Under the pieces are notes generated by a model, which had not been told where the DNA came from, ran no database searches, and saw nothing but the letters and a program-made list of their open reading frames with translations. Positions 2,192 through 37,928 of a stretch of DNA of 46,827 bases are shown here, piece by piece; position 1 is the first letter of the stretch; every line of letters begins with the position of its first letter. This DNA comes from Klebsiella phage vB_Kp_Z1, in the sequence record PQ308734.1. The stretch is one strand, 5' to 3'. Position numbers and translations under genes: made by a program.

Positions 2192-2554
2192 ATGTTTATC
2201 TATAAAGTACGCCGTGACTTTAAGAAAGCCCATGAGCGATACAACATAGTTAAGCGTGGCAATAATTGGGTTGTGAGAGATAGTAAAGGACGCTTTGTTA
2301 CTATCACAGATAACTATTGGAACATCTGCAAACTAGGGCTTAACATGAACTACGATGAGATTATCAAAGAGTGTGAGCGGGTTATGGAAAGGGCTAATGA
2401 GACTACTAGTGCTAACGTAGAGGTTAGCTCAGCCCTGTGGTGGAATGCTTACAATCGCTATGTAGCAGCACTCAGGGCTAGGGAGCAAGCTAAACGTATT
2501 CACTACACCAACTGCGGCTCAGTAGACTTGAGGATAGAAACATGCCTCAACTAA
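2192..2554 (+). CDS. Early hypothetical protein (about 120 aa; the ORF track starts at TTG 2144)
   Basis: Long + strand ORF in the early region. The in-frame ATG at 2192 is preceded by a GGGTGG SD-like sequence. Confidence 0.45.
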   Translation: MFIYKVRRDFKKAHERYNIVKRGNNWVVRDSKGRFVTITDNYWNICKLGLNMNYDEIIKECERVMERANETTSANVEVSSALWWNAYNRYVAALRAREQAKRIHYTNCGSVDLRIETCLN

Positions 2555-2677
2555 TCTACTTGAGCCAGATTGCAGCAGCAGAAAGTAAACTTGCTATAGC
2601 TAACTTCTTAGGTGATAAGAAGATGAGAGGTGAAGCTATTCAGGCCATCAATAAAGCTAAACTGGAGTATAGGAATT

Positions 2678-2848
2678 ATGTCAAAAGATAGTAAGTCAGA
2701 TGGGGCTATATATGCCAGCACCAAGCCCAACTGGACAGTTGAAGAATGGCGGGAATTTAACAGACTCTCTAGGGAAATGGAGCGAGAGTTAGCTAAAGCT
2801 GCTAGTGCGGGCTTGTTCCTGACAGCAGCAGACTTGCGTGAGGAGTGA
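2678..2848 (+). CDS. Small early hypothetical protein (56 aa)
   Basis: ATG at 2678 within the 2630-2848 ORF, with AGGAAT upstream. Confidence 0.3.
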   Translation: MSKDSKSDGAIYASTKPNWTVEEWREFNRLSREMERELAKAASAGLFLTAADLREE

Positions 2849-2918
2849 GAGACTAAAGGCAGCTTGCGAGTTGCCTTTGTGACTATCATTCGATAGCCGT
2901 TAATTTGAGGCAATTACT

Positions 2919-3776
2919 ATGCAAAACATCAATGAGTCACTTCTTACTGAGCTGGAATGCTTAGAGAGTGAGATTAAGGCAACTATAGCTGACGCTGGCA
3001 AGGCAACATTCCACTTAGGTGAATTACTACTGAAAGCTAAGGACGCTCACGAAAGCACACCAGAATTTCTGAAGTGGGTAGATGAGAAGTTCGGCATTAA
3101 GAAAGCTTGGGCTTATCGCTTGATGAAAGTGGCTAGTGTATTCCAAGAGGATGTATGGAAAGCAACTGCTGTTGAGGTGCTGTACACCCTGCAATCTCAA
3201 GCCACTGACAGCCAGCTTGAGCAAGCCAGAGAGCTGGCTGAGGCTGGCAAGCTGAACCGTAAGACGCTATCTGAGCTGCTGGAGCCTGTAGCGCCACCAG
3301 TTAAGCAAGCTGAGCATCCAGAGCCACAGAGCAGCCAGAAGCTACTGCAACAAGCTGCTGAAAGCCTTATAGCAAGCGCTGCTGAGCCACAAGAGGCGGC
3401 TCCCATCTTACCAACATCTTATAGGGCCGTACCTGACCAACCGCAGGAGGATAAAGAAGACTTAATGGAGCTTGTAAGAGATTTACGTGAGCAGCTGGCA
3501 TTGCAGCAGCAGCAGAATGCGGAGCTAATGAATCAAATCATGGAAGCTAACAAGCCACGAATAGCGGCTAGTAACGCTCCTATGCTGCCACAGTTCACAA
3601 GTGCTTGCATGTACGCCCGCTTGGGGCTAGCTGCTGAGGATGCAACAGATAAGGCTAAGATTCTGGAAGCATTCAAGAGCCTTTGTAAAGCTGGTTATGG
3701 TCGCCAGCATGAGGCGTACAGCTTGCTTGATGAGGCCCGCCATAAGCTCATTCACGCTATGGAGGCCGCAGCATGA
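2919..3776 (+). CDS. Early protein (285 aa), Q/A/E-rich with a predicted coiled-coil middle; function unknown
   Basis: Largest early ORF, immediately upstream of the RNAP gene. GAGG precedes the ATG. I recognise no family. Confidence 0.6.
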   Translation: MQNINESLLTELECLESEIKATIADAGKATFHLGELLLKAKDAHESTPEFLKWVDEKFGIKKAWAYRLMKVASVFQEDVWKATAVEVLYTLQSQATDSQLEQARELAEAGKLNRKTLSELLEPVAPPVKQAEHPEPQSSQKLLQQAAESLIASAAEPQEAAPILPTSYRAVPDQPQEDKEDLMELVRDLREQLALQQQQNAELMNQIMEANKPRIAASNAPMLPQFTSACMYARLGLAAEDATDKAKILEAFKSLCKAGYGRQHEAYSLLDEARHKLIHAMEAAA

Positions 3777-7179: not shown

Positions 7180-7202
7180 ATCAGGCGCTACAATAGGGGG
7201 AG
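7180..7202 (+). promoter_or_regulatory. Phage-RNAP promoter-like 23-mer (divergent copy) inside the origin-like region
   Basis: AGGCGCTACAATAGGGGGAG matches the core CTACAATAGG of the consensus ATTAGGCACTACAATAGGAGAAG. Confidence 0.45.
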
Positions 7203-7557: not shown

Positions 7558-7700
7558 TGAGGTACGTTATTAAGCAGCAACCTGATGGTCTTTGGTATGT
7601 AAAGGATGAGTATCGTAATAAGGTACTAGTATGGGATGCAAGCAGGGAATACTGTGAAGGCTTCTTAGCAGGTGTTGCAGCTGTTGGAGGTGATTGCTAA
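7557..7700 (+). CDS. Small hypothetical protein (47 aa)
   Basis: Translationally coupled ORF between 7408-7557 and the primase start. Confidence 0.4.
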   Translation: MRYVIKQQPDGLWYVKDEYRNKVLVWDASREYCEGFLAGVAAVGGDC

Positions 7701-8883
7701 TGGCTATTGTTATGAACCTACCTTGCCCTGCCTGCCAGAAGAATGGCGCAGACAAGAATGGTAAGTACCTTATGGTGTTTGAGGATGGCGGTAAGCTATG
7801 TATCCATACTCACAACCACGATAACCGTGAGCGCTACTATGAGCCACCTGATGGCAAAGACCCTGTGTTTGACCGTGAGATTGATGGTAAGGTTCAGTAT
7901 TCTCCTGAGCAGTTCCGCAAGCTGGAATCAGATGGCAAGCTGAGTGATTCTTTTACCCGTCATCTTGCTATGTCTGGCATGAGGATGAAAGACCGCTATG
8001 AGATTCTCACTGATGATGAGCGCACAGCTCTGGAGAATGAGTGGCGCATGGACATGGAGTGGTTTGAAGGGCTTTCCTTTAAGTCACTAGCTGACCGTGG
8101 CATACATGGGCTAATCGCCAAGCTATATAATGTGCGAGTAGGTCATGATGAGTCTGGTAAAGTTGTCCGTCATTACTACCCAACTTATGACAGCCAGCTA
8201 AACCTGATTGGCGCTAAGTGTCGAACGTTGCCTAAGGAATTTATGTTCGGGCATCTTGGTCGTCGCTTTGGTGACACTGCACTGTTTGGTATCCACACCC
8301 AGCAAGCTGTACTTGATAGCGGTACTTTCAAGAAAGGTAAGATGGGTAAGCTGCTGGTAGTTGGCGGTGAGTGTGATGCTATGGCAGCTCAGCAGATGCT
8401 GGTTAAGAGTCTTAATAAGCTTGAGCAGTTCAATGGCCTGAAGTCACTTGATGGCTTGCGCCTGGCTCATGTGTGGTCGCCAACTAAAGGGGAGACAGCG
8501 CTAGAGGAGATTGTAGCTAACCGTGAATACCTCAATCAGTTTGAGGAGATTGTATGGGGCTTTGATAACGACGATGTAGGCAACAAGCTTAACCTAGACT
8601 GCTCCCGCTTGTTCAGGCAGAAGTCTAAGTTCTTTAACTACCCAGCTGGATGCAAGGATGCTAATGATTGCTTGCTTAAAGGCAGGGAGAAGGAGTTCAT
8701 GGATTCGTGGTGGCAACCAGCAGAGGCTAGAGTTAAGGGCAAGCTGAGGGAAGCTGGTCACTACGCTAAGCGAGCTAAGCAAGCTGTAGAGATGGGCTTG
8801 TCATACTTCTGTGAAGCTCTCAACATGATTACCTTTGGTATTCGCCTGCGTTACTTGTCTGTGTGGGGTGCTGGTACTGGCGT
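7700..8883 (+). CDS. Primase-helicase, exon 1 (zinc-ribbon plus TOPRIM primase domain, reading into the first half of the helicase Walker A)
   Basis: CPACQ..C.H.H zinc-ribbon motif, then TOPRIM-like GGECDAMAA and FDNDDVGN. The reading frame stops right after SVWGAGTGV, which is half of a P-loop. ATG 7700 lies inside the track ORF 7694-8893. Confidence 0.8.
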
Positions 8884-9659
8884 TAACTTATAGCGCCGTT
8901 AGTCAGGAATGGCTAACGTAAACTGTGTGAATTCGGGGGAAGACTAGACCAGTTAATCCCGAGCCAGAAGACACCTACTAATGGAGGTGTTTATGTTGAA
9001 GAAGCTGATTAAAGGTTATGAGAATTATTGTGTTCGTGAAGATGGTGAAGTATTCAATGTTCGAACAGGAAGGCGGTTAATGCCTGATGTAAGTAACAGA
9101 GGGTACTGGAGGATTACAGTTTGCAAAGATAATAAGCCTAAGAAATTCACTATTCATAGGTTAGTTGCTGAACTGTTTATCCCAAATCCTAACGGATATG
9201 ACACTGTTAATCATATTAATGGTGATAAGTCTGATAACTCAATTGATAACCTTGAATGGATGAGTCAAGAGCAGAACCAAGAGCATGCAAAGCTTACTGG
9301 TCTGTGCCCTAAAGGTGAGCTAAACGGTATGAGTAAGTACAGTGAGCAGTTGATACACAGAGTATGTGAGCTGATCCAATCAGGTAAGGTTCGCAATGAG
9401 GTGTTAGCTGCAACAGGTATTACTAAGTCATCATTTGATGACATTCGACGCAGGAAGACTTGGCGGCACGTGAGCCAAGATTACTGCTGGTAATTAACCG
9501 TGTCTTCTGGTGTAACGACTATTCCGTAAGGAAGTACACTCAAGCGAGTGGAAGCGCACAGCACCCAGAACGGGTGATGATATAGTCTGGTCTGCATGGG
9601 GACATGCAGCAGTTCATAAGAGAACGGGGTGCAACTAGCGACTGCACTCGAACACAACG
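8884..9659 (+). other. Group I intron (776 nt) interrupting the primase-helicase gene inside its Walker A motif
   Basis: P1 is formed by exon GGCGU (8879-8883) and the internal guide GCGCC (8893-8897), with a U-G wobble at the splice site. P-like GAATTCGGGGGAAG and Q-like AATCCCGAGCC precede the ORF. R-like GTGTAACGACTA and S-like GATGATATAGTCT lie 3' of the ORF, followed by a CTGCATG-GGGA-CATGCAG hairpin (GNRA loop). Terminal G 9659 can act as omega-G. The predicted splice restores GAGTGVGKTEITTQHITSL, a good match to the T7 gp4 helicase motif H1. Confidence 0.7.
8993..9493 (+). CDS. Intron-encoded HNH homing endonuclease (NUMOD4-like N-terminus, HNH core, C-terminal HTH)
   Basis: GYENYCVREDGEVFNV matches the NUMOD4 pattern. 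HRLVAELF...VNHINGDKSDNSIDNLEWMSQEQN is an HNH motif. The ATG at 8993 follows GGAGG. The track ORF is 8981-9493. Confidence 0.8.
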   Translation: MLKKLIKGYENYCVREDGEVFNVRTGRRLMPDVSNRGYWRITVCKDNKPKKFTIHRLVAELFIPNPNGYDTVNHINGDKSDNSIDNLEWMSQEQNQEHAKLTGLCPKGELNGMSKYSEQLIHRVCELIQSGKVRNEVLAATGITKSSFDDIRRRKTWRHVSQDYCW

Positions 9660-10488
9660 AGGTAAGACTGAGATTACTACTCAGCATATTACTAGCCTTA
9701 TCAAGCAAGGTAAGCCAGTGGTAGCTATTTACCTTGAGAACAGTCCAGAAGAAGTCCTCAAGATGGTGGCAAGCCAGATGGCTAACAAGGACTTTATGAG
9801 TCCACCACTAGGTGAAGATGATGAGTATGATGCATCGAGGGATTACACCCAAGAGGAGTTAGACGCTACAATAGATGAACTAGTAGCAACTGGATTGCTT
9901 ATCATACCTGACCTTGAAGGTAGCAAGGATGTCAACGTAATCATGGAAGTCCTAGAAGATGCATTAGCATTAGGCTACCAGTATTATGTTATCGACAACC
10001 TGACAGCCTTTGAGCACTACGTAGATGGTAAGGTTCAAGTAGGTGTTGCTGCTATTGACGAGACTATGAAGCGCATAGGTACGTTTAAGGACGAGCATGA
10101 CGTTAACATTATGCTGCTCACTCACTTAAGCAGACCAGAGAAAGGTCGTGACCCCCACGAGCTTGGTGGTGAAGTCTATATCACTGACTTACGTGGTGCA
10201 GGCTCTATCAGCTTTTGGGCTAATGGTGTATGGGGCATCGAGCGTAACACTCAGGCTGAGGCTATTAGCGACAAGTGTACTACACTGCTGCGTAACCTTA
10301 AGTCTCGTGGCGTTGGTCACAAGGTTGGCTCAACAGTTGTGCTCCGCAAGGACATTACTACTGGTGAGTTTGAGTACCTTGAAGGTGTTCATGAGCTGCC
10401 GCAGGTTGGCAGGAAGAAGAAGGAGAGTAAGCGCGATGCGCAAGCTCAACGGTTTATTGAAGATGCAGAAACTGACGGAGAGTTCTGA
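9660..10488 (+). CDS. Primase-helicase, exon 2 (DnaB-family helicase domain with an acidic C-terminal tail ending in Phe)
   Basis: GKTEITTQ completes the Walker A. YYVIDNLTAFEH (H2 / Walker B), IMLLTHLSRPEKG (H3) and LRGAGSISFWANGVWGIERN (H4) follow. The protein ends in ...EDAETDGEF, as in T7 gp4. The track ORF 9604-10488 is in the same frame. Confidence 0.8.
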
Positions 10489-11447: not shown

Positions 11448-13988
11448 ATGGAACACTTTCCGTCAATGTTTGCCAATAAAGCTGACCGCCCCTCTGGTAA
11501 GGGGCGCTTTCTTGTTGGTGACTTAGAGGGTGTGGGGCTTGTCAGGGCGATTCGTAAGCCGTCTGACATTCATGTCATCACCCTGCAAGATTACTTTAGC
11601 GGTGACTACTGGATTTTCTTCGATCCTATTGAGAAGCGAATCAACCCTAGCGAGCTGCAAATGGAAGGGGAGCAGGATGGCTACATTGAGGATGGTGTTC
11701 GTATGCTCATGGAGTCAGAAGCTTTCTGCTTCCAGAACGGGGTAGGCTTTGACTTGCATGTGTTTGAGAAATGCTTCCCGTGGTTCAGGTATAACTACTG
11801 TGAGTCACGAGCAGCTCGCCCACATGCTGACATCTTCCCGTTTAAGTTTATGGATACCATGCTGGTTAGCCAGCTGACTTATCCAGACCGCCCATTGCCA
11901 CCACAAGCTTACGCCATCGGCGCAGGTAATACTGGGCCGCATAGTATTGCAGCTCATGGTATCCGCATGGGTCGCTACAAGCCTGACCATGAAGACTGGT
12001 CTACTCTTACTGATGCAATGATTCACCGTAACGTGGAAGACGTTGCTATTGGTACTGATATGCTTAAGTGGCTCATGGAAGGTGATTGGGCTGAGCAGAA
12101 AGCTCGTGGCCTTAATAAGACCACTGGCTGTGGCATCGAGACTGCTTATCAGATGGAGCAGCAAGTGGCTCTCATGATTAGCCGTCAGGAGCAGCGGGGG
12201 TTCCGCTTTGATATGGCTCAGGCTTACAAAGACTACTGCGCCATTGACAAGGAGATGGAAGATACAGCAGCTGCTGTTGACCCACTCATACCACTGAGGC
12301 TTGTCACTAAGCCTTACAAGTTTGCTGACCTTAAGTCAAGGTATGATGCAGCTGTCAAGGCTGGGTTCACTGAGGCAGAGCTTAAGCCTGTCTTTAATGG
12401 CATCAATCAGACCATGAAAGCTATGGGTGATGAAGCTCGCATGGGTGACAAGGCTACTATGTGGTCTTTGACAACCAAGAACGGTGACTACAGCAAGCGT
12501 TTGCAAGGTTACTTCCCTGAGATGCGTGGCAACATAAATGACACGCATGACCCTCTTGTAGCTGGTGCATTCACTCCAATTAGCTTTGAGCATATTGGCT
12601 TGGGTAATCTTGACTACATTAAAGAGAAGGTGCTGTATCCACTTGGCTGGCGTGGTGTTAACTTGTCTGACTCTGAGCAAGAGTGGTATGACGAGCATGG
12701 CACAACACGTTATCCGTGGGCTGGTAAGATTGATGATGACTCGCTTGAGCTATGGAAGAAGAAACAGGAAGTACCAGAGTGGGCGCAGCAGGTTGTTAAC
12801 TACTACATCCTACGCTCGCGCCGCTCAGTTATCCTGAACCGAGGCGACCTTGACCACTTCCTTGAGAAAGGTCAGTGGCCTAAGCAGAAGAATGGGCGTC
12901 ATGAATGTCGTGGCTTGCTGGCAGTAGCTTACTGCAAAGAGTATGACATGACGGCTATGGAATACTTTGCTAAGTTCCGTGAGTGGCCTACATCTGAGGA
13001 TGAGGACTGGCGTGTACCAGCAGCAGCTTTCAGCATAGGAACCAATACCTTCCGTATGCGTCATCGCTTTGTGGTTAACATACCTGCTCGTGGGTTGTGG
13101 CCTCTGCGTCACCTGTTCATTGCATCTAAGGGTAAACTTATCTTAGGCTGTGATGGGGCTGGCCTTGAGCTACGTATGCTCAGTCACTTTATGAATGACC
13201 CTGAGTATCAAGACATCATACTTACAGGTGACATCCACACACATAACCAGCTTAAAGCAGGCCTACCTACAAGGGACATGGCGAAAACTTTCATATACGC
13301 CTTTCTCTACGGGTCAGGTATTGATGGGCTTGCCCGACTTGCTGGCATTAGCTTTAGTGAGATGGAGCAGTGTATTGCTCGCTTCAAAGCAGAGCTGCCT
13401 GCACTTGCTAAGCTCATTGAGCGTGTAGAAACTGCTGGTCGTAAGTTTGGCTACCTACAAGCTATTGATGGTCGCTGGGGCCGTATTCGCCGTAAGAATG
13501 GCAAGCCACTGCTGCACACTGCACTTAACGTATTGCTTCAGATGACTGGCTCTCTGGTTATGAAGTATGGTGAGTGCATCGCTGAGACTCAGATGATTGA
13601 GGAAGGGGTTGCATTAGATGATAAAGGCTATCCAGCTTTCGTGGCTAACGTACACGATGAAGTACAGATGGAAGTCCCTGAAGATGAAGTTGATGTTATG
13701 GACTACACGTTGCCATATACACTTGATGGATTCGAGAATGAGAAGAAAGCTATCAAAGCGGTCTTTGATGTTGAGGAGAAGCGAGCACACACTGATGACA
13801 GTGGGCGTAAGTGGTCAGCAGCTATCAAGGTTTCTGCTGCTGATGGTACTATCCATTGTCGCAGGTACTATCATCGAGCTGGTAACATCCTTATGGATGC
13901 TTTCGAAGCTGCTGGTGTTAAGTTCAACATGAGATGCCCACTTGCTGGTGAATATAAGATAGGCCGTAACTGGCATGATACTCACTAG
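11448..13988 (+). CDS. Family A DNA polymerase (846 aa, SP6-size) with a 3'-5' exonuclease domain
   Basis: Exo I FLVGDLEGVG; motif A LGCDGAGLELRML; motif B RDMAKTFIYAFLYGSG; motif C VANVHDEVQMEV. The ORF is continuous with no intron. Confidence 0.95.
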   Translation: MEHFPSMFANKADRPSGKGRFLVGDLEGVGLVRAIRKPSDIHVITLQDYFSGDYWIFFDPIEKRINPSELQMEGEQDGYIEDGVRMLMESEAFCFQNGVGFDLHVFEKCFPWFRYNYCESRAARPHADIFPFKFMDTMLVSQLTYPDRPLPPQAYAIGAGNTGPHSIAAHGIRMGRYKPDHEDWSTLTDAMIHRNVEDVAIGTDMLKWLMEGDWAEQKARGLNKTTGCGIETAYQMEQQVALMISRQEQRGFRFDMAQAYKDYCAIDKEMEDTAAAVDPLIPLRLVTKPYKFADLKSRYDAAVKAGFTEAELKPVFNGINQTMKAMGDEARMGDKATMWSLTTKNGDYSKRLQGYFPEMRGNINDTHDPLVAGAFTPISFEHIGLGNLDYIKEKVLYPLGWRGVNLSDSEQEWYDEHGTTRYPWAGKIDDDSLELWKKKQEVPEWAQQVVNYYILRSRRSVILNRGDLDHFLEKGQWPKQKNGRHECRGLLAVAYCKEYDMTAMEYFAKFREWPTSEDEDWRVPAAAFSIGTNTFRMRHRFVVNIPARGLWPLRHLFIASKGKLILGCDGAGLELRMLSHFMNDPEYQDIILTGDIHTHNQLKAGLPTRDMAKTFIYAFLYGSGIDGLARLAGISFSEMEQCIARFKAELPALAKLIERVETAGRKFGYLQAIDGRWGRIRRKNGKPLLHTALNVLLQMTGSLVMKYGECIAETQMIEEGVALDDKGYPAFVANVHDEVQMEVPEDEVDVMDYTLPYTLDGFENEKKAIKAVFDVEEKRAHTDDSGRKWSAAIKVSAADGTIHCRRYYHRAGNILMDAFEAAGVKFNMRCPLAGEYKIGRNWHDTH

Positions 13989-14845: not shown

Positions 14846-14868
14846 ATTAGGCACTACAATAGGAATAG
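14846..14868 (+). promoter_or_regulatory. Phage RNAP promoter (ATTAGGCACTACAATAGGAATAG)
   Basis: 21 of 23 positions match. The predicted +1 G is at 14862, and the transcript begins GGAAUAGCUGAG, reading straight into the tRNA-like element. Confidence 0.65.
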
Positions 14869-14946
14869 CTGAGTAGACTCAATTGGTAGAGCGGTACACC
14901 AGAAATGGCAGTATCGGTTGCTGGTTCAAGTCCAGCCTCAGCGACC
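14867..14946 (+). ncRNA. tRNA-like element lacking a canonical anticodon arm (tRNA pseudogene or structured decoy RNA)
   Basis: 6-bp acceptor stem GCUGAG/CUCAGC. U8-A9. A D-arm with conserved A14, A15, G18, G19 and A21 (ACUC-AAUUGGUA-GAGC). A perfect T-arm GCUGG-UUCAAGU-CCAGC, discriminator A, and CC. In the anticodon position there is a GGUAC-[A-CCA-GAAA-UGG-CA]-GUAUC hairpin with a GNRA tetraloop. I found no 5-bp stem with a 7-nt loop by hand. Confidence 0.35.
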
Positions 14947-18525: not shown

Positions 18526-19086
18526 ATGAAAGATACTTATATCTTTGACTTGGATGGTACATTAGCTTGTGGTAAGCACCGCTTGCATCTACTGCCAACT
18601 AAGGATACTGCACACCGTACAGAAGCTTGGGATAGTTTCAATCTGGCTGCTGGTGGCGATGCTCCAATCCTTGACAACATCCGACTGATGAATGAACTGT
18701 TCCAGTTTGGTAAGCGTATCATCATCCTGTCTGGTCGTGGCGATGTAGCTAAGGCTATTACTGAGAAGTGGCTGTGGGAACATGGCTGTAACTTCAATCA
18801 GCTTATTATGCGCCCAGTAGCTGACCATCGTCGTGATATTGAGTTCAAGGAAGAAAAGCTGCGTGAGATTGGCCTTGAGCGAATTGTAGCTTGCTTTGAT
18901 GACCTTGAGCACGTAGCTAAGCATATCCGAAGCTTGGGTGTTACTTGTCATCTTGTCACTCACTATGACACTAACTGCGTCTCTGTGAGTCAGCATGTTC
19001 GCTATCCCGGCCTTATTCGTGGAGTAGGTCAGTATGAGCGGGGGTACAACCAAGCCATTGCAGACACCAGGGAGCTTAACAAATGA
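18526..19086 (+). CDS. HAD-superfamily phosphatase (186 aa)
   Basis: Motif I FDLDGTL at residues 7-13, a motif II-like ILSGR, and a C-terminal CFDD. Confidence 0.65.
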   Translation: MKDTYIFDLDGTLACGKHRLHLLPTKDTAHRTEAWDSFNLAAGGDAPILDNIRLMNELFQFGKRIIILSGRGDVAKAITEKWLWEHGCNFNQLIMRPVADHRRDIEFKEEKLREIGLERIVACFDDLEHVAKHIRSLGVTCHLVTHYDTNCVSVSQHVRYPGLIRGVGQYERGYNQAIADTRELNK

Positions 19087-19649
19087 TTGTAATCCTTAAC
19101 GCTCCACCCGCATCTGGTAAAGATACTATTGGTGGAATCTTAGCTGACTGGCATGGCTGGAAAGCACTTAGCTTCAAGAAGCCTATGTTTGACTTAGCTA
19201 AGTCACTGTTAGGTGAAGATAAGTATGCACAGTTCCTTGAGCTGTACAATGACCGCATCACTAAGGACAAGCCTACTAGCATTTGTGGTGGACTGTCACC
19301 TCGTGACTTCTTCATCCATATCTCTGAGAAGATGTGCAAGCCTCTGTTTGGTGAACAATACTTTGGTGAGCGCTTTCTTGAGCTGGTCAGCAATGAGGTA
19401 ACTACTGTAGTTACTGATGGCGGCTTCCATCAAGAGGTTCGTCCTATGCTGGATGCTGGTCATAGGGTTGTCATTGTACGCTTGTTCCGCAAGGGCTATG
19501 ACTTCTCTAATGACTCACGCCGATATTTAACTGAGCAGGACTTCTCATACTTGCCAACTTTCCGTAGCCCTTCATTCCTTGATGTAGAGCTTATAGAGGG
19601 TCAACCATACCGTGCAGCTGATTACATCTTCAATAAGCTAGAGGGTTAA
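19083..19649 (+). CDS. Deoxynucleoside monophosphate kinase (T4 gp1-like, 188 aa)
   Basis: LNAPPASGKDTIGGILA matches T4 gp1 LSGVKRSGKDTTADFI. KKPMFDLAKSLLG matches AGPIKDALAYAWG. VVTDGGFHQEVRPMLDAGHRVVIVR matches YIVPDTRQDHEMDAARAMGATVIHVVR. Confidence 0.7.
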   Translation: MIVILNAPPASGKDTIGGILADWHGWKALSFKKPMFDLAKSLLGEDKYAQFLELYNDRITKDKPTSICGGLSPRDFFIHISEKMCKPLFGEQYFGERFLELVSNEVTTVVTDGGFHQEVRPMLDAGHRVVIVRLFRKGYDFSNDSRRYLTEQDFSYLPTFRSPSFLDVELIEGQPYRAADYIFNKLEG

Positions 19650-19650
19650 T

Positions 19651-20637
19651 ATGAACGTATTTGAGTTCCTTGGGTACCCAGCTGACCATCGCCCCAAGAA
19701 TAAGGTTGTGCAGCTGGTTAAGCATTGGGATGAAGTACCTGAAAGCCGTAAGCTATATCCATACTATGCGCAGGTCAAGAAAGATGGTGTGTTTGGTATT
19801 GTTGTGGTAACTAAGGATGATGATGGCAACATTGCTGTTGCTGTCTTTGGTCGCACTGGTGAGCAGCTCAGTAACACTGAGGCAATCTGCTCACGCTTCC
19901 TTGAAGGCTACATTGCTGAGGGCATCTACATAGGGGAGGTACTGACTCAAGCTCCATGCAGCCTTGAGGAGCTGTCAGGTATCCTCAACCCTAATCGTGT
20001 CAATAAGCTGGACATCAATCAGGAAGTTATCAAGTGGAACTTGTACATTGCTCTGCATGACTGCTTAACTAAGAAGATGTTTATTGCTGGTACATCAGCT
20101 GGCATAAGCTATCACACCAGACACTCCAGCTTGATGAAGCGTATTGCAGGTACTGACCTAGAGGAAAGCGCACTGTCCTATACAGTCATCCACGATGACC
20201 ACCAGAAAGAGCAGTTCACTAAAGCTTGCATTGCTGCTGGTGAGGAGGGTGCAGTCTACAAGCGACCTGGCTGTGAGTGGGAAGCTGGTCATAAGGGCTG
20301 GCATCAGATGAAGGAAGTGCGTGAGGTAACATATGACCTAAAGTGTGTAGGCTACGAGGAAGGGTCAGGCAAGTACAAAGGAAAGGTCGCTAACCTAATC
20401 TTCCAATGGAAAGGTGGTGATACTATCAAAGCTATGCTTGGCAAAGGTTATACACATGCTGATGCTGAGAAGATGTTCATAGCTATCACTAAGCTTGGAT
20501 ATTTTGATGGTGAGCACCTTGAAAGCCCTATTGGAAAAGTCTTCCGTATTCGTGGCCTGCAAGATAGTAGCAAAGGTAAGATTCGCTTACCCAAGGTGCA
20601 GGAGGAGCGCCATGACAAGTCAGAAGGTGACTTTTAA
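19651..20637 (+). CDS. ATP-dependent ligase (nucleotidyltransferase KxDG motif; probably a DNA ligase like T7 gp1.3)
   Basis: Motif I AQVKKDGVFG (the lysine adenylylation site). Length 328 aa. The position matches the DNA-metabolism module. Confidence 0.7.
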   Translation: MNVFEFLGYPADHRPKNKVVQLVKHWDEVPESRKLYPYYAQVKKDGVFGIVVVTKDDDGNIAVAVFGRTGEQLSNTEAICSRFLEGYIAEGIYIGEVLTQAPCSLEELSGILNPNRVNKLDINQEVIKWNLYIALHDCLTKKMFIAGTSAGISYHTRHSSLMKRIAGTDLEESALSYTVIHDDHQKEQFTKACIAAGEEGAVYKRPGCEWEAGHKGWHQMKEVREVTYDLKCVGYEEGSGKYKGKVANLIFQWKGGDTIKAMLGKGYTHADAEKMFIAITKLGYFDGEHLESPIGKVFRIRGLQDSSKGKIRLPKVQEERHDKSEGDF

Positions 20638-20803
20638 GAGTAAGCAGCAAGCTATGGAGTTTGCCATCAACACTTTTGTAGATGGCAATCAACTCACATC
20701 AGCTGAGCAGGAAGCTGTTCAAGCTGCTGGTGTTAACATCAAACAGGTAGAGGACTATGTCAGACAAGCACTCGGTTCCAATGAACCTGAAGGAGAGGAT
20801 TAG
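20612..20803 (+). CDS. Hypothetical protein (63 aa)
   Basis: ATG 20612 inside the track ORF 20495-20803. It overlaps the ligase 3' end. Confidence 0.35.
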   Translation: MTSQKVTFKSKQQAMEFAINTFVDGNQLTSAEQEAVQAAGVNIKQVEDYVRQALGSNEPEGED

Positions 20804-20987
20804 TGACGATGAGTACCCGAATCCTAAAAACCCTACGGCTCTTGATTTACCTACATACTCCTTCTTGGATGATGCACTACGCACCCCGACAACTAACTAC
20901 CGTTCGGAGATGCATGAGTTCATCCGTAAGGAAGTTATCCAAGAACTACGAGGGATTATCTTCTCATGCCTCAAACTCCGCAAGTAA
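20757..20987 (+). CDS. Hypothetical protein (76 aa; an alternative start is at 20781)
   Basis: Protein-like composition. The competing ORF 20803-21033 is R/S-rich and is judged spurious. Confidence 0.3.
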   Translation: MSDKHSVPMNLKERISDDEYPNPKNPTALDLPTYSFLDDALRTPTTNYRSEMHEFIRKEVIQELRGIIFSCLKLRK

Positions 20988-21427
20988 GAGATGCAGGCCA
21001 CCTAGACCTGCTTATACTAGCAAGCCTTGCTAATGAGTACGCGCAAGAAGTTACTGAGATGAAACAGCATCCGGTGGACGCGAATGTACTCATGCAGGGA
21101 TTGGCAGCTACCTTAGGTAATCCAACGGGATACCTGAAGGTCTTAACTGTTGATGGTAAGGTGGTAGGTGGCTTTTGGGGCTGCTTAACCCACATGCCTT
21201 GGTCAGCGACATTAGTTGCACAGGACATTATCATCTTTGTTAATAAGGACTTCAGGGGTTATGGTAGGCTGCTGATAGATGACTGGCTCAAGTGGGCTAA
21301 GTCAGTGGGCGCAAAGGAAGTGTGCCTTAGCACAGCCTCAGGTATTGCAACAGAAACTACCTGCAAGCTGTTTGAAAGATTAGGATTCCGCAAAGTAGGC
21401 TATATGTATTCTAAGGAGGTTACATGA
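20966..21427 (+). CDS. GNAT-family N-acetyltransferase (153 aa)
   Basis: Acetyl-CoA-binding segment FRGYGRLLIDDWLKWAKSVGAKEV and LFERLGFRKVGY in the usual GNAT arrangement. Confidence 0.7.
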   Translation: MPQTPQVRDAGHLDLLILASLANEYAQEVTEMKQHPVDANVLMQGLAATLGNPTGYLKVLTVDGKVVGGFWGCLTHMPWSATLVAQDIIIFVNKDFRGYGRLLIDDWLKWAKSVGAKEVCLSTASGIATETTCKLFERLGFRKVGYMYSKEVT

Positions 21428-21630
21428 GCATGAGTAAACCTAAGGTTCCAGCATACAACCCGCCAGCTGCTAAGCCTGAGCGTCAGGTTGATGTTGAGCC
21501 TGAGGACGTACAGCTGGGGGATGAAGCCAGCCAAGATACAACTAAGAAAGGTAAACGTGCTCTTATGCGCCCAAGTGGTGTTATGAGCGGTGCAAACGCT
21601 GGTGGCGGTGGTGCTGGCTTAGCAGTCTAA
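21424..21630 (+). CDS. Small protein (68 aa), Gly-rich C-terminus; possibly a minor virion protein
   Basis: ATGA overlap with the GNAT gene. It lies immediately upstream of the portal gene, where T7 carries gp6.7/gp7.3-type small virion proteins. Confidence 0.45.
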   Translation: MSMSKPKVPAYNPPAAKPERQVDVEPEDVQLGDEASQDTTKKGKRALMRPSGVMSGANAGGGGAGLAV

Positions 21631-21639
21631 GGAGGGCTT

Positions 21640-23232
21640 ATGAGAGGGTATAGCCCTATCATCACTAAAGGTGGTGATGTTCCTTATATGAACAATCGCA
21701 TGAAGGTTAAGGAAGAATCTGGCAAGCCAAAGTCAACCCTAGCTGAGCGATACAAAACCCTCTCAGCTAAGAGGGAGACACAGCTCTCACGAGCTAAGAT
21801 GTATGCAAAGATTACCTTGCCTGCTCTGTTCACTGAAGACCAGAGTACTGACCAAGGTGATGCATACACTCAGAATAGCTGGCAGAGCTTAGGTGCGCAG
21901 GGTGTCAATCATCTGGCTAACAAGTTGGTTATGACTTGGTTCCCGCCACAGCGTTCTTTCTTTAAGCTAGAGTTTACCGATGAAGCTAAGCAGGCCTTGT
22001 ATGATGCTGGCACAAGTGATGTTGACTTGCTAAGTATTATGGCTAGAGCTGAGAACAAAGCTAGGCTGCTGCATGAACAAATCCAAGGACGCATTGCATG
22101 GACACAAGCTGCTAAGCATTTAATTGTTTCTGGCAATGCTATGTTGTATGCGCCACTTAATGATAGTCTTGTATGCTATCCAATGGATAAGTATGTAGTT
22201 AAGCGTTCAAAGACTGGACGTGTAACTCAGATGATTCTGGAAGAAGTCAAGTGCTTAAGTGAGTTCCCTCCAGCTGTTCAGGCTATCATCAAGGCTAAGC
22301 GTTTTAACATCAAGCAAGATGATACTGTTGAGTTGTACACACAAGCTAAGTGGGATGGCAGTATGTATGTCATCACCCAGGAAGCTGTGGATACCACAAT
22401 AGGTAAGGAATACCGAGTCAAGCCTGAGGAGTCACCATTCATCGTTCTAACTTGGGAGCGTCTGTATGGTGAGGACTATGGCCGTGGCTTGGTAGAATCT
22501 TGCTACGGTGATTTGTTCACTTATGCTTTCCTGTCTAAAGCTGTTGCTAAAGGCTGTGCGCTTATGTCAGAGGTTAAGTTCCTCGTCAAGCGTGGTTCAG
22601 CTACTTCACCTACTGCACATGCTAAAGCCGAAACAGGTGATTATGTATGGGGCGAGGAAGGGGATGTAAGTGTTGTACAGCTAGAGAAGTACGGTGACTA
22701 CCAGACAGTCTTATCAGTTCTTGAAACATACTCTAAGCGACTAGGACAGGCATTCCTTCTAGCATCTGCTAACCGCAGGGATGCAGAGCGAGTGACAACC
22801 TATGAGCTGCGTATGGATGCAATGGAGCTGGAGACATCATTAGGTGGAACCTATTCTCAGATTGCTGTATCAGGTCAGCTACCTTATGCTAACCTGTTGC
22901 TCAAGCGCTCTGGCTTTAAGCTACCTGCTACTGATGCTGTACCGATTATCATCACAGGTATTGAGGCGCTTGGTAAAGCTGGTGAGCTTGATAAGCTTAT
23001 GCAACTGTCAGAGATGATGGCAATCCCTAATAGCTGGTCGCCAGCTGCACAGGAGCGCATCAAGTGGTCTGACTATATCGCATTCATCGCAGCTAACCTT
23101 AACATGGAGACTAGCTGGCTGATGACTGAGGATGAGTACAACAAGATGAAGCAGGCGCAGCAACAGCAAATGCAGCAACAGCAACTTATGGAAGCTGCTG
23201 GTAAAGCTGCTCCACAAATGATGAAACAATAA
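21640..23232 (+). CDS. Portal (head-tail connector) protein (gp8-like, 530 aa)
   Basis: Size (T7 gp8 is 536 aa), position at the head of the structural module, a Q-rich C-terminus, and GGAGGG upstream. Confidence 0.85.
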   Translation: MRGYSPIITKGGDVPYMNNRMKVKEESGKPKSTLAERYKTLSAKRETQLSRAKMYAKITLPALFTEDQSTDQGDAYTQNSWQSLGAQGVNHLANKLVMTWFPPQRSFFKLEFTDEAKQALYDAGTSDVDLLSIMARAENKARLLHEQIQGRIAWTQAAKHLIVSGNAMLYAPLNDSLVCYPMDKYVVKRSKTGRVTQMILEEVKCLSEFPPAVQAIIKAKRFNIKQDDTVELYTQAKWDGSMYVITQEAVDTTIGKEYRVKPEESPFIVLTWERLYGEDYGRGLVESCYGDLFTYAFLSKAVAKGCALMSEVKFLVKRGSATSPTAHAKAETGDYVWGEEGDVSVVQLEKYGDYQTVLSVLETYSKRLGQAFLLASANRRDAERVTTYELRMDAMELETSLGGTYSQIAVSGQLPYANLLLKRSGFKLPATDAVPIIITGIEALGKAGELDKLMQLSEMMAIPNSWSPAAQERIKWSDYIAFIAANLNMETSWLMTEDEYNKMKQAQQQQMQQQQLMEAAGKAAPQMMKQ

Positions 23233-36235: not shown

Positions 36236-36542
36236 TAAGAATTCAGCCACAGAGGATGATGTTGGTCTTATCCATAAGCTTGTTACTAAGGTCATTACTA
36301 AGAAGCTTGAGAAGTGGTTAGAGCTTATTGATAAAGGTGGTGATGTAGACTTGGTTGTAGATATGAAACAGCTTAAGTCTGCCATTGACTGGTGTGACAA
36401 GAATGGCATCGTATGTGCTGACCCAGCTGAACAAAGCGATAATGAACTTGGTGATAAGCTCTCTGAGATTCGCAAGGCTCAACATGCTCGTGGTGTAGTT
36501 GTTCCATTCAAAGAAGATGATGAGGAGGGCTATGGAACATGA
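36213..36542 (+). CDS. Terminase small subunit (gp18-like, 109 aa, GTG start)
   Basis: AGGAGG before GTG 36213, and an ATGA overlap with the large terminase start. Size and position fit T7 gp18. Confidence 0.5.
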   Translation: MASVSKSNKNSATEDDVGLIHKLVTKVITKKLEKWLELIDKGGDVDLVVDMKQLKSAIDWCDKNGIVCADPAEQSDNELGDKLSEIRKAQHARGVVVPFKEDDEEGYGT

Positions 36543-37078
36543 GGCGTGTTAACAGGAACGACAAGAAGGCACAGTTAGAAATGTGGGAGGAGCTTGAAGC
36601 GATACAGAAAGCTTTCCCCTTCACTGTGCAAGGCTTGTGGCTGTTTGCCTCACTTGTGCTTGAGAAGACTATCGTAGGCTCTCCTCACCTTAATCGCACA
36701 CAGAAAGATATTCTGAGCTTCCTGCTTAACGGTGGGAAGTATATAGGCATACAGGCAAGCCGTGGCATGACCAAGACAGTTATGGCAGCTATCCTCTGCT
36801 GCTTCTGCCTTATTCATATGCCGCACTACCGTATCATTGTATTCTCACAGAACGGCAAGCGAGCTAAGGAGATTGCAGGGTGGGTTGTAAAAATCTTCTA
36901 TGCTATCGACATCCTTGAGGTATTGCAGCCAGATACCTATGCTGGCGACCGTTCATCTATTGAAGCTTTTGACATTCATTGGTGTTTCCGTGGTGCTGAT
37001 AAGTCACCATCAGTTACTTGCTACTCTATTGAGTCGGGTGCTCAGGGTGCTCGTGCTGACCTTATACTCGCAGACGAT
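36539..37078 (+). CDS. Terminase large subunit, exon 1 (ATPase domain through Walker B)
   Basis: GIQASRGMTKT (Walker A-like) and LILADD (Walker B) align with T7 gp19 TSRQIGKST and IYIEDC. The ORF stops 3 codons after the Walker B motif, at 37087. Confidence 0.85.
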
Positions 37079-37928
37079 AAACTTTAACAATGTCGTCTAT
37101 AAACCATTTTAATTCGGTGGAACTCAGCCCTAACATGGGAAGACAATACCGAGCTAGGGCTAACGCCCGAGTGTAACGACTAGCCGAAAGGCGTAGGGCC
37201 AAGTGGCTCGAAACTTATGGGTGCAGTTATATGCACAAGATATAGTCTACTCTGCATAGAGATATGCAGCATCTCTTAAGGAGGTCTAACATGACCAAGC
37301 GTAATAGTGTTAAAGATACATCAGCATTTCGTACCAGAAAGTATGATGTAGGAAGTATCATCAAGACTAAATATGGTGATGTAAAGATACTAGAAATAAT
37401 TAAAGGTTATACAGATAGTGCTGGTAAGAGGTTTCGCACTAGGTGTGTTTGTATCTTCCTAGCCACTGGTTATGTAACTAATTGCCAACTATCTAACCTT
37501 ACTGTCGGTAAGGTGAAGGATATGAGGATGCCAACAGTGTATGGCGTTGGTTACATAGGGTCTGACATCAAGATAACAGCTCGCGGAACTTATGTTCGTA
37601 GGTTATATGACCTATGGGCTAACATGCTTAAGCGTTGTTATTTTAAGTCTGGTACAAGAAATGATGAAATTTACAAGGATGTAAAAGTTGATACAAGATG
37701 GCACAGTTTCACAAACTTTATGAACACTATACAAGACGTAGAGGGGTTTGAGCTGTTTGAAGCAGGGCTTGATGTTGCACTTGATAAAGATATAAAGGTC
37801 AAGGGTAATAAAGTCTACTCAAGAGATACCTGCATGTTTGTATCAACAAGGGATAACACTATTGCAGCACTTAATAAGAGGTGGCATGGAAAGTAACGAA
37901 GCCATGTTAATAAAGGATTGAAAGTTTG
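37079..37928 (+). other. Group I intron (about 850 nt) splitting the large terminase gene, related to the primase-helicase intron
   Basis: P1 is formed by exon GACGAU (37073-37078) and the guide GUCGUC (37092-37097), with a U-G wobble at the splice site. P-like AATTCGGTGGAAC, Q-like AATACCGAGC, R-like GTGTAACGACTAG and S-like AAGATATAGTCTAC follow, then a CTGCATA-GAGA-TATGCAG hairpin. This is the same core as intron 1. The ORF sits 3' of the core. The 3' splice site is predicted after G 37928 (G 37916 is the alternative), which rejoins ADD|QNSRTAQSREWLLEQ with the same D-to-W spacing as T7 gp19. Confidence 0.65.
37291..37896 (+). CDS. Intron-encoded homing-endonuclease-like / DNA-binding protein (201 aa from ATG 37291)
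   Basis: AAGGAGG precedes the ATG. The motif YGVGYIG...RRLYDLWANMLKRCY...VKVDTRWHSFTNFMNTI resembles the W..M..RC / W..F.NF DNA-binding module of phage homing endonucleases. No HNH or GIY-YIG catalytic motif is evident. Confidence 0.55.
   Translation: MTKRNSVKDTSAFRTRKYDVGSIIKTKYGDVKILEIIKGYTDSAGKRFRTRCVCIFLATGYVTNCQLSNLTVGKVKDMRMPTVYGVGYIGSDIKITARGTYVRRLYDLWANMLKRCYFKSGTRNDEIYKDVKVDTRWHSFTNFMNTIQDVEGFELFEAGLDVALDKDIKVKGNKVYSRDTCMFVSTRDNTIAALNKRWHGK

Follow-up and report, generated by a model that had tools for sequence, protein, structure and literature searches.

On the + strand of Klebsiella phage vB_Kp_Z1, a Gajwadongvirus-like podophage, a primase-helicase gene is divided by a segment of 776 nucleotides (nt) that encloses an endonuclease gene and resembles a group I intron. 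The analysis covered the whole 46,827-nt stretch of this phage (PQ308734.1), hereafter called the window, and the divided region spans positions 8884-9659. Three consecutive open reading frames (ORFs) are listed at the locus, at 7694/7700-8893, 8981/8993-9493 and 9604-10488, and Pfam assigns Toprim_2 to the first, HNH_3 (E = 1.7e-10) to the second and DnaB_C to the third. Taken as separate ORFs, primase and helicase remain under the Pfam cut-offs (Toprim_2, 21.4 versus 22.1; DnaB_C, 23.3 versus 27).

The interrupted gene and its exon boundaries

The first ORF ends with ...SVWGAGTGVNL-stop, and GKTEITTQHITSLIKQGKPVVAIYLENS is found within the third. When position 8883 is joined to 9660, exactly 776 nt disappear and an open frame of 2013 nt and 670 codons emerges, which reads GAGTGVGKTEITTQ and contains the P-loop GAGTGVGKT. 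The split point U8883/A9660 lies inside the Val codon, between GAGTGV and GKT. Exon 1 (7700-8883, +) encodes the zinc-finger/TOPRIM primase part, a linker and the first half of the Walker A motif (...GAGTG plus GT of the Val codon), as indicated by the ORF list, the Toprim_2 match and collinearity with Pectobacterium phage PP99 gp16 and Klebsiella phage RCIP0053. Exon 2 (9660-10488, +) provides the A of the Val codon, followed by GKTEITTQ..., the remainder of Walker A and the helicase motifs H1a-H4, as indicated by DnaB_C, the alignment with T7 gp4 and collinearity with PP99. An initial annotation of this DNA had recognized half a P-loop at the end of the primase ORF, its remainder in the helicase ORF and a canonical P-loop upon joining U8883 to A9660; all of these assignments are correct to the base.

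The intron boundaries are fixed by natural, near-identical relatives whose aligned genes contain no intron. The PP99 primase/helicase gene is uninterrupted and collinear with the window gene after splicing, the two proteins are nearly identical, and the gene reads ACTGGTGTGGGTAAGAC. RCIP0053, whose flanking sequences are 98% identical, also has an uninterrupted gene and reads ACTGGTGTAGGTAAGAC in the junction region. Both genes have the same length as the spliced window gene. The junction 8883/9660 alone reproduces GT/A and puts U at the end of exon 1 and G at the end of the insert. The shifted junction 8884/9661 would still encode Val, but it was dropped because the last intron base would be A. 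The terminal G9659, after which the 3' splice site lies, is thus assigned as omega-G, as initially suggested, since no other junction agrees with the intron-less alleles and also leaves U at the end of exon 1. Just upstream of the site, GGC takes the place of GGT in every intron-containing allele, and this replacement converts a U·G pair of helix P1 into C-G.

The spliced 670-amino acid (aa) protein matches T7 gp4 (PDB 5IKN) in one stretch, residues 267-614, that runs across the junction (E = 3.6e-22), with GVGKT aligned on GMGKS of T7 gp4; this alignment had been proposed as a check on the joined protein and bears it out. Only after conceptual splicing do a TOPRIM primase and a RecA-type helicase with the Walker A motif GxxxxGK[ST] reside in a single polypeptide. 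An intein was rejected as the source of the interruption because translation in the frame of exon 1 would end at a UAG codon (8891-8893, +) located 8 nt into the insert. Removal must therefore occur at the RNA level.

The group I core and its endonuclease

What kind of RNA is removed? The 776-nt segment (8884-9659, +) displays the architecture of a subgroup-IA group I intron, extending from P1 to P9.2 and including P7.1 and P7.2; the assignment draws on the Rfam family RF00028 and on the exact absence of the segment from intron-less relatives. P1 (8878-8885/8891-8898) pairs the exon sequence UGGCGU (8878-8883) and the adjoining UA with 8891-8898, as supported by the Rfam alignment and a pairing check at five sites. 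It includes the guide GCGCCG (8893-8898) and, within its 3' strand, the stop codon of the exon-1 frame. The 5' splice site follows U8883, which forms a wobble pair with G8893, and the Rfam alignment places the splice-site U of RF00028 on this very nucleotide, in keeping with the GGCGU/GCGCC pairing initially described. P2, identified by sequence reading, is a UUAGUC/GGCUAA hairpin with an AGGAAU loop (8899-8904/8911-8916). Its position holds hairpins of unrelated sequence in Escherichia phage ULINTec6 and Salmonella phage PVP-SE1, and P2 is absent from the introns found at a second site of the gene (see below).

The catalytic core is built on the same strand from P3 (8923-8929/9555-9561), P4 (8933-8938/8957-8962), P5 (8942-8945/8951-8954) and P6 (8963-8964/9510-9511), each supported by RNAalifold and pair counts, together with P7 (GACUA/UAGUC, 9517-9521/9583-9587) and P8 (9562-9566/9572-9576). 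P6a is a perfectly complementary 8-bp stem of GAAGACAC (8967-8974) and GUGUCUUC (9500-9507), and its loop holds the endonuclease ORF; the ORF is likewise flanked by long stems, of unrelated sequence, in every ORF-carrying relative. Between P7 and the 3' strand of P3, two extra hairpins are present, P7.1 (9522-9525/9530-9533) with a GUAA loop and P7.2 (9537-9541/9546-9550). P9 is the hairpin CUGCAUG-GGGA-CAUGCAG (9592-9598/9603-9609), based on Rfam and pair counts, and is followed by the peripheral helices P9.1 (9612-9615/9622-9625) and P9.2 (9627-9633/9643-9649). The P-like and Q-like elements of the initial annotation correspond to the two strands of P4, its R-like and S-like elements to those of P7 and its GNRA-capped hairpin to P9 with the loop GGGA. 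The conserved P3-P8 core, including the P4 (P/Q) and P7 (R/S) pseudoknot, is thus present in the window intron. Hairpins P7.1 and P7.2 at this location are the mark of subgroup IA in the Michel-Westhof classes, the subgroup of the T4 td intron, and by this definition the core at 8884-9659 is classified from its sequence as IA-type (IA2-like).

A permissive Rfam search detects RF00028 at 8874-9609 with 31.7 bits (E = 4.7e-6 for a 981-nt region; E = 2.2e-4 for the whole window). Two Klebsiella phages, Roth32 and RCIP0089, contain an ORF-free insert at the same site, and these alleles score 84.7 and 75.8 bits, respectively, above the curated RF00028 threshold of 50, which places their RNA in the group I family. 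The lower score of the window copy is accompanied by an ORF insert of ~520 nt. The Rfam alignment of the window copy locates the R element upstream of the ORF (ACACCUACUA), but this placement was rejected because the ORF-free alleles put R at 9510-9521. In a search with the 3' core of the intron, 693 phage records gave matches; many of these lie within genes for DNA polymerase or other replication functions, and some bear the annotation Intron_gpI.

The fold was examined by comparison of nine introns, from the window, Roth32, RCIP0089, ULINTec6, JSF38, VL73, Cronobacter phage 009, PVP-SE1 and Pseudomonas phage ZGC, which were aligned with MAFFT after their ORF loops had been trimmed. Without guidance, RNAalifold recovered P3, P4, P5, P6/P6a, P7.1, P7.2, P8, P9, P9.1 and P9.2, with compensatory changes in 31 of 59 predicted pairs. 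For counting, four spurious pairs were removed from the RNAalifold set and the P7 pseudoknot was added, giving 60 pairs. Across the nine introns, 96.5% of the helix cells are paired, versus 30-44% in slid controls, and double changes occur in 31 of the 60 pairs, versus 3-9 in slid controls; neither value was matched in any of 500 shuffles. Compensatory changes are found in P3, P7.1, P7.2 and P8 and in five of the seven P9.2 pairs, and every helix pairs in the window's own row. Since the MAFFT alignment is not structural in P1, P2 and P6a, these helices were checked sequence by sequence (a 2-nt bulge in P2 of Cronobacter phage 009 was left out of the strings used). In P1, the U·G pair at the splice site is retained in every intron checked, and the guide is altered to suit five different exon contexts.

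Could primase and helicase instead be made as separate polypeptides? In a truly split gene, a free-standing endonuclease cassette would lie between two independently translated parts that assemble afterwards, an arrangement for which nrdA-a/nrdA-b of phage Aeh1 is the model. GenBank indeed lists two separate genes in Roth32, RCIP0089 and VL73, and in the window a 294-aa ORF begins in frame at ATG 9604. However, this ATG forms part of the 3' strand of P9 and has no credible ribosome-binding site, and the apparent start of the 'helicase ORF' is an ORF-calling by-product. Moreover, the 250-nt non-coding RNA of the ORF-free alleles is recognized by the group I intron model with 75.8-84.7 bits, and the helices covary. 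Because the break falls inside a P-loop codon, neither fragment would possess a Walker A motif. A split gene is thus very improbable.

The intron-borne ORF (8993-9493, +) encodes a 166-aa I-HmuI-like HNH homing endonuclease. Its family assignment is established by the HNH_3 match (40.8 bits versus a cut-off of 24.8), by phrog_59 (E = 3e-46) and by I-HmuI itself (PDB 1U3E; E = 7.4e-15, residues 8-114), with the HNH His and Asn aligned. The initial annotation had named it a NUMOD4-HNH endonuclease. The HNH part holds, whereas Pfam finds no NUMOD4 even at E <= 10; residues 8-50 nonetheless align with the N-terminal part of I-HmuI, despite the Pfam blank. A faint helix-turn-helix signal is reported by Pfam in the C-terminal third. 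Translation most likely starts at ATG 8993 rather than 8981, given that a GGAGG sequence (8983-8987) lies 5 nt upstream and that the ULINTec6 homologue, 59% identical over all 166 aa, has the same length.

The GGAGG Shine-Dalgarno sequence is covered by a local hairpin (8969-8976/8985-8992, +) with a minimum free energy of -9.6 kcal/mol (z = -1.8). This hairpin (8969-8992) and P6a are mutually exclusive, and similar Shine-Dalgarno hairpins of other sequences occur in ULINTec6, JSF38, VL73 and PVP-SE1 (z from -1.7 to -2.9). Translational control is known for I-TevI of T4, and by analogy the hairpin may delay translation of the endonuclease.

The motif TTARGCACTACAATAG occurs 11 times in the window, versus ~1.5 copies expected by chance, nearly always on the + strand and mostly in intergenic regions (7181, 7369, 9859, 13991, 14847, 14949, 18483, 24140, 35024 and 39262 on the + strand; 37859 on the - strand). 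Judging from this distribution, the copies are probably promoters of the phage RNA polymerase. Those at 7181 and 7369 lie upstream of the primase-helicase gene, and none of the 11 is located within 8884-9659. The absence of the motif from the intron suggests that the endonuclease is co-transcribed with its host gene.

Several observations weigh against an active group I intron in the window. At the gathering threshold, a default Rfam run over the whole window gave no match, and the 31.7 bits of the permissive run are below the curated 50, so that, by score, it is the ORF-free relatives that place the element in the family. The Rfam search proposed in the initial annotation therefore returned the expected family but at a subthreshold score. 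The default blank is not read as a refutation, because an ORF insert of ~520 nt brings the score down and because the permissive run and the ORF-free alleles settle the question. P7 (GACUA/UAGUC) is invariant in all nine introns, and its covariation is accordingly uninformative, neither for nor against the helix. Three of the nine alignment rows are near-identical, and the counted structure was partly derived from those same nine sequences. No convincing P10 was found: the only candidate, a 4-bp CUUA/UAAG pairing, was dropped because it is offset from the splice site and is not conserved in ULINTec6. Self-splicing of the window intron, as well as the activity and target of its endonuclease, is predicted from sequence.

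These points bear most directly on the alternative that the element is a group I intron by descent whose window copy no longer self-splices, being in decay or dependent on a protein cofactor, so that helicase would be limited or the genome defective. The subthreshold score, the reading of splicing from sequence and the loss of the endonuclease ORF in relatives, which indicates that the element is turning over, are in line with such a copy. In opposition to it, the core outside P6 is ~96% identical to the well-scoring ORF-free alleles, every helix pairs in the window's row, the same allele exists in an independent metagenomic contig and the endonuclease ORF is intact, with its HNH His and Asn aligned with those of I-HmuI. 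Furthermore, the primase-helicase gene is essential for a T7-like phage. A non-splicing copy is thus very improbable. We conclude that 8884-9659 is very likely a mobile group I intron that has entered a primase-helicase gene of the T7 gp4 type at its Walker A codons, in agreement with the intron-less relatives, the RF00028 match and the covariation, as initially annotated.

Related introns at the P-loop and elsewhere

Roth32 (PQ657801) and RCIP0089 (OR532883) contain their ORF-free inserts of 250/251 nt at the identical point, with the same P1, a core ~96% identical outside P6 and flanking genes that are 98% identical. Unlike the window intron, these alleles lack the 166-aa endonuclease ORF, and P6a is a short CCUA-GUAA-UAGG hairpin; the window insert corresponds to the ORF-free insert plus an ORF-bearing segment of ~520 nt. 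GenBank lists two separate genes in both phages and leaves the intron unannotated. The ORF-free P6a hairpin (CCUAGUAAUAGG) resembles the region of the window Shine-Dalgarno hairpin at 8964-8992 (CCUACUAAUGGAGG), and both sides of the ORF-enclosing P6a stem are absent from Roth32 and RCIP0089. This resemblance, together with the missing stem, suggests that the short alleles once contained the endonuclease gene and lost it, and that P6 was tidied afterwards.

The endonuclease-carrying allele of the window is also found in one IMG/VR contig (L038), with 98.4% identity. When IMG/VR was scanned for exact occurrences of the P1 motif, 55 loci were obtained, and the intron core follows only in L038; the other loci, which have no core downstream, were discarded as chance matches. 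Likewise, an IMG/VR search with the endonuclease recovered the protein only in the L038 contig, all other matches being at most 48% identical.

The same site is occupied in a different subfamily of Autographiviridae. Escherichia phages ULINTec6 and ULINTec7 (MZ997840/1, Vectrevirus) contain an intron at GGCGT/.../AGGTAAGAC, with the same P1 and an ORF in P6a. The intron is 68.7% identical overall to that of the window and the endonuclease, also of 166 aa, 59%, and compensatory changes distinguish P2, P3, P4, P6a, P7.1, P7.2, P9 and P9.2. The ULINTec6 record labels the ORF 'HNH homing endonuclease # Phage intron', yet it lists two primase/helicase coding sequences.

Is the interruption an assembly artefact or chimera, in which an unrelated intron or endonuclease fragment was placed in the gene? 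Nothing specific favours this explanation. The insert is placed with single-base precision and its removal restores the frame, the guide matches the flanking exon, and the same arrangement recurs in the independently sequenced IMG/VR contig, Roth32, RCIP0089 and ULINTec6/7. The probability of an artefact is thus practically negligible.

More distant relatives also reside in P-loop codons. In Salmonella phage PVP-SE1 (GU070616, genes 13/14), the P-loop codons of a gp4d-type helicase are split by a group I intron that belongs to the same core family and has an I-HmuI-like HNH ORF in P6a, and the GenBank coding sequence is already joined. This phage differs in being a myovirus with a 146-kilobase (kb) genome, and its endonuclease is 38% identical. 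Its splice would occur at GGGGGT/.../AAAAGT, between the GGU and AAA codons inside GPSGGGKS (between G and K of GGGKS), 4 nt downstream of the window position. A related intron and endonuclease are located in the same P-loop of Cronobacter phage vB_CsaP_009 (LC519601), whose junction is best read as GGT/GGTAAGACA, with a putative boundary. In the vB_CsaP_009 record, the intron HNH endonuclease is annotated as 'major capsid protein', and the coordinate origin cuts the split primase/helicase region. The site is thus not 'distinct and unusual', as had been supposed: judged by its relatives, the window intron is a phage mobile element of an ordinary kind, and other deposited genomes already have an intron at this site. 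The literature searched contains no description of a group I intron in the primase-helicase P-loop of T7-like phages; PVP-SE1 is known by its GenBank annotation.

Introns of the same lineage were observed at a second site of the gene, 175 nt upstream (window 8708/8709), in phages JSF38 (locus L003, 1510-2235) and VL73 (locus L004, ~2515-3243). The second site reads ...GAUGCGU/GGUGG..., and ...GCGU before the cut is common to both sites. These introns are ~88% identical in P9-P9.2, the guide is changed from GCGCCG to GCGCAU, P2 is absent and the HNH endonucleases share only 31% identity with that of the window.

The core family of the window intron extends to DNA-polymerase genes, namely those of Providencia phage PS3 and the Pseudomonas Pakpunavirus phages ZGC and PaGz-1, and probably, from sequence matching to the window polymerase region, that of RCIP0053. 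In the RCIP0053 region at record positions 18804-21949, the polymerase gene contains at least one intron of this family, beginning after the position that matches window 13055, and the window polymerase gene (11448-13988) is uninterrupted. RCIP0053 has a polymerase intron but no primase-helicase intron, indicating that intron content is mosaic among phages that are 98% identical.

How does the window intron compare with known phage introns? A putative group I intron is mentioned for the DNA-polymerase gene of one T7-like phage, K1F gp5.3 (PMC4925675). The T7-like polymerase introns and the IA2 introns of T4 td, nrdB and sunY likewise occupy phage replication or nucleotide-metabolism genes and share with the window intron an IA-type core, P7.1/P7.2 and an endonuclease in a peripheral loop. 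They differ in host gene and site, as the window intron occupies a helicase P-loop. I-HmuI of Bacillus phage SPO1 (PDB 1U3E) belongs to the same endonuclease family, consisting of HNH and an N-terminal beta-sheet DNA-binding part, and is likewise encoded in a phage group I intron within a replication gene, the SPO1 DNA-polymerase gene, although the host gene and the phage group differ. I-HmuI is a nicking enzyme.

Two further elements were noted elsewhere in the window. A second group I intron (37079-37916, +) lies in the large terminase gene, where a match to RF00028 with 37.8 bits (E = 3.4e-6) covers 37053-37269. Terminase exon 1 (36539-37078) ends with ...ADLILADD, and exon 2 starts at 37917 (IESLQNS...). 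P1 of the terminase intron pairs GACGAU with GUCGUC, and an HNH-type ORF (37291-37896; phrog_2081) follows P9. The terminase intron is present in RCIP0053, RCIP0089 and Edwardsiella phages and absent from Roth32, ECBP5, PP99, MR4 and JSF38. In addition, a transfer RNA (tRNA)-like element (14867-14944, +) scores 35.3 bits with RF00005, versus a threshold of 29, and has good acceptor, D and T arms and a 13-nt anticodon loop. It is located between two exact promoter-like motifs, received no ARAGORN call and was missed in the default Rfam run.

Proposed splicing and homing cycle

We propose that a single pre-messenger RNA (mRNA) would be transcribed from upstream phage promoters, with candidates at 7181 and 7369. 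The intron would fold and pair the exon sequence UGGCGU with the guide GCGCCG, an external guanosine would attack after U8883, and the freed end of exon 1 would then attack after G9659. The ligated mRNA, reading GGC GUA GGU AAG (junction GGCGU/AGGUAAGACU), would encode the 670-aa primase-helicase with the intact P-loop GAGTGVGKT. On unspliced RNA, ribosomes would halt at UAG 8891-8893, short of the catalytic core. The ribosome-binding site of the endonuclease could be hidden in the local hairpin, possibly delaying its translation. In a mixed infection, the endonuclease would probably nick or cut intron-less alleles near GGTGT(A/G)GGTAAGAC, the corresponding target in RCIP0053 and PP99 being ACTGGTGT(A/G)GGTAAGAC, and repair of the nicked or cut allele would copy the intron in. 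Three allele states, intron-less, ORF-free and endonuclease-carrying, exist in the genomes of phages that are ~98% identical.

The known workings of group I introns and HNH homing endonucleases are unchanged by these findings. Their practical consequence concerns annotation, given that an essential gene is listed as two unrelated 'hypothetical' or 'DnaB-like' genes in Roth32, RCIP0089, VL73, JSF38 and Cronobacter phage 009. Recognition of the intron restores a single 670-aa primase-helicase. The findings also show that mobile elements acting at the RNA level strike the same helicase P-loop as DnaB inteins, which are mobile, carry a homing endonuclease and favour insertion point b in the P-loop of this superfamily 4 (SF4) replicative helicase (PMC4760082). 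DnaB inteins are in frame and spliced at the protein level, in contrast to the window insert with its in-frame stop after 8 nt.

Beyond the window, we raise tentatively, as a possibility that we would not yet favour, that for one lineage of introns with I-HmuI-like endonucleases the landing pad is the set of GxGK[ST] codons (...GGTAAGAC...), which are near-universal in SF4 helicases. If this were true, the lineage could pass between unrelated phage families, represented here by podophages of the Gajwadongvirus-like and Vectrevirus groups, a Grimontviridae phage of 92 kb and a Vequintavirinae myovirus of 146 kb, and it would be capable of retargeting within a gene, as at the second site with its re-tuned guide in JSF38 and VL73. 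The element could then also serve as a weapon in co-infection competition, and the three allele states in 98%-identical Klebsiella phages would represent a live snapshot of the homing cycle. Near-identical Klebsiella phages of the therapeutic type that contain all three stages of this cycle would be a convenient experimental system.

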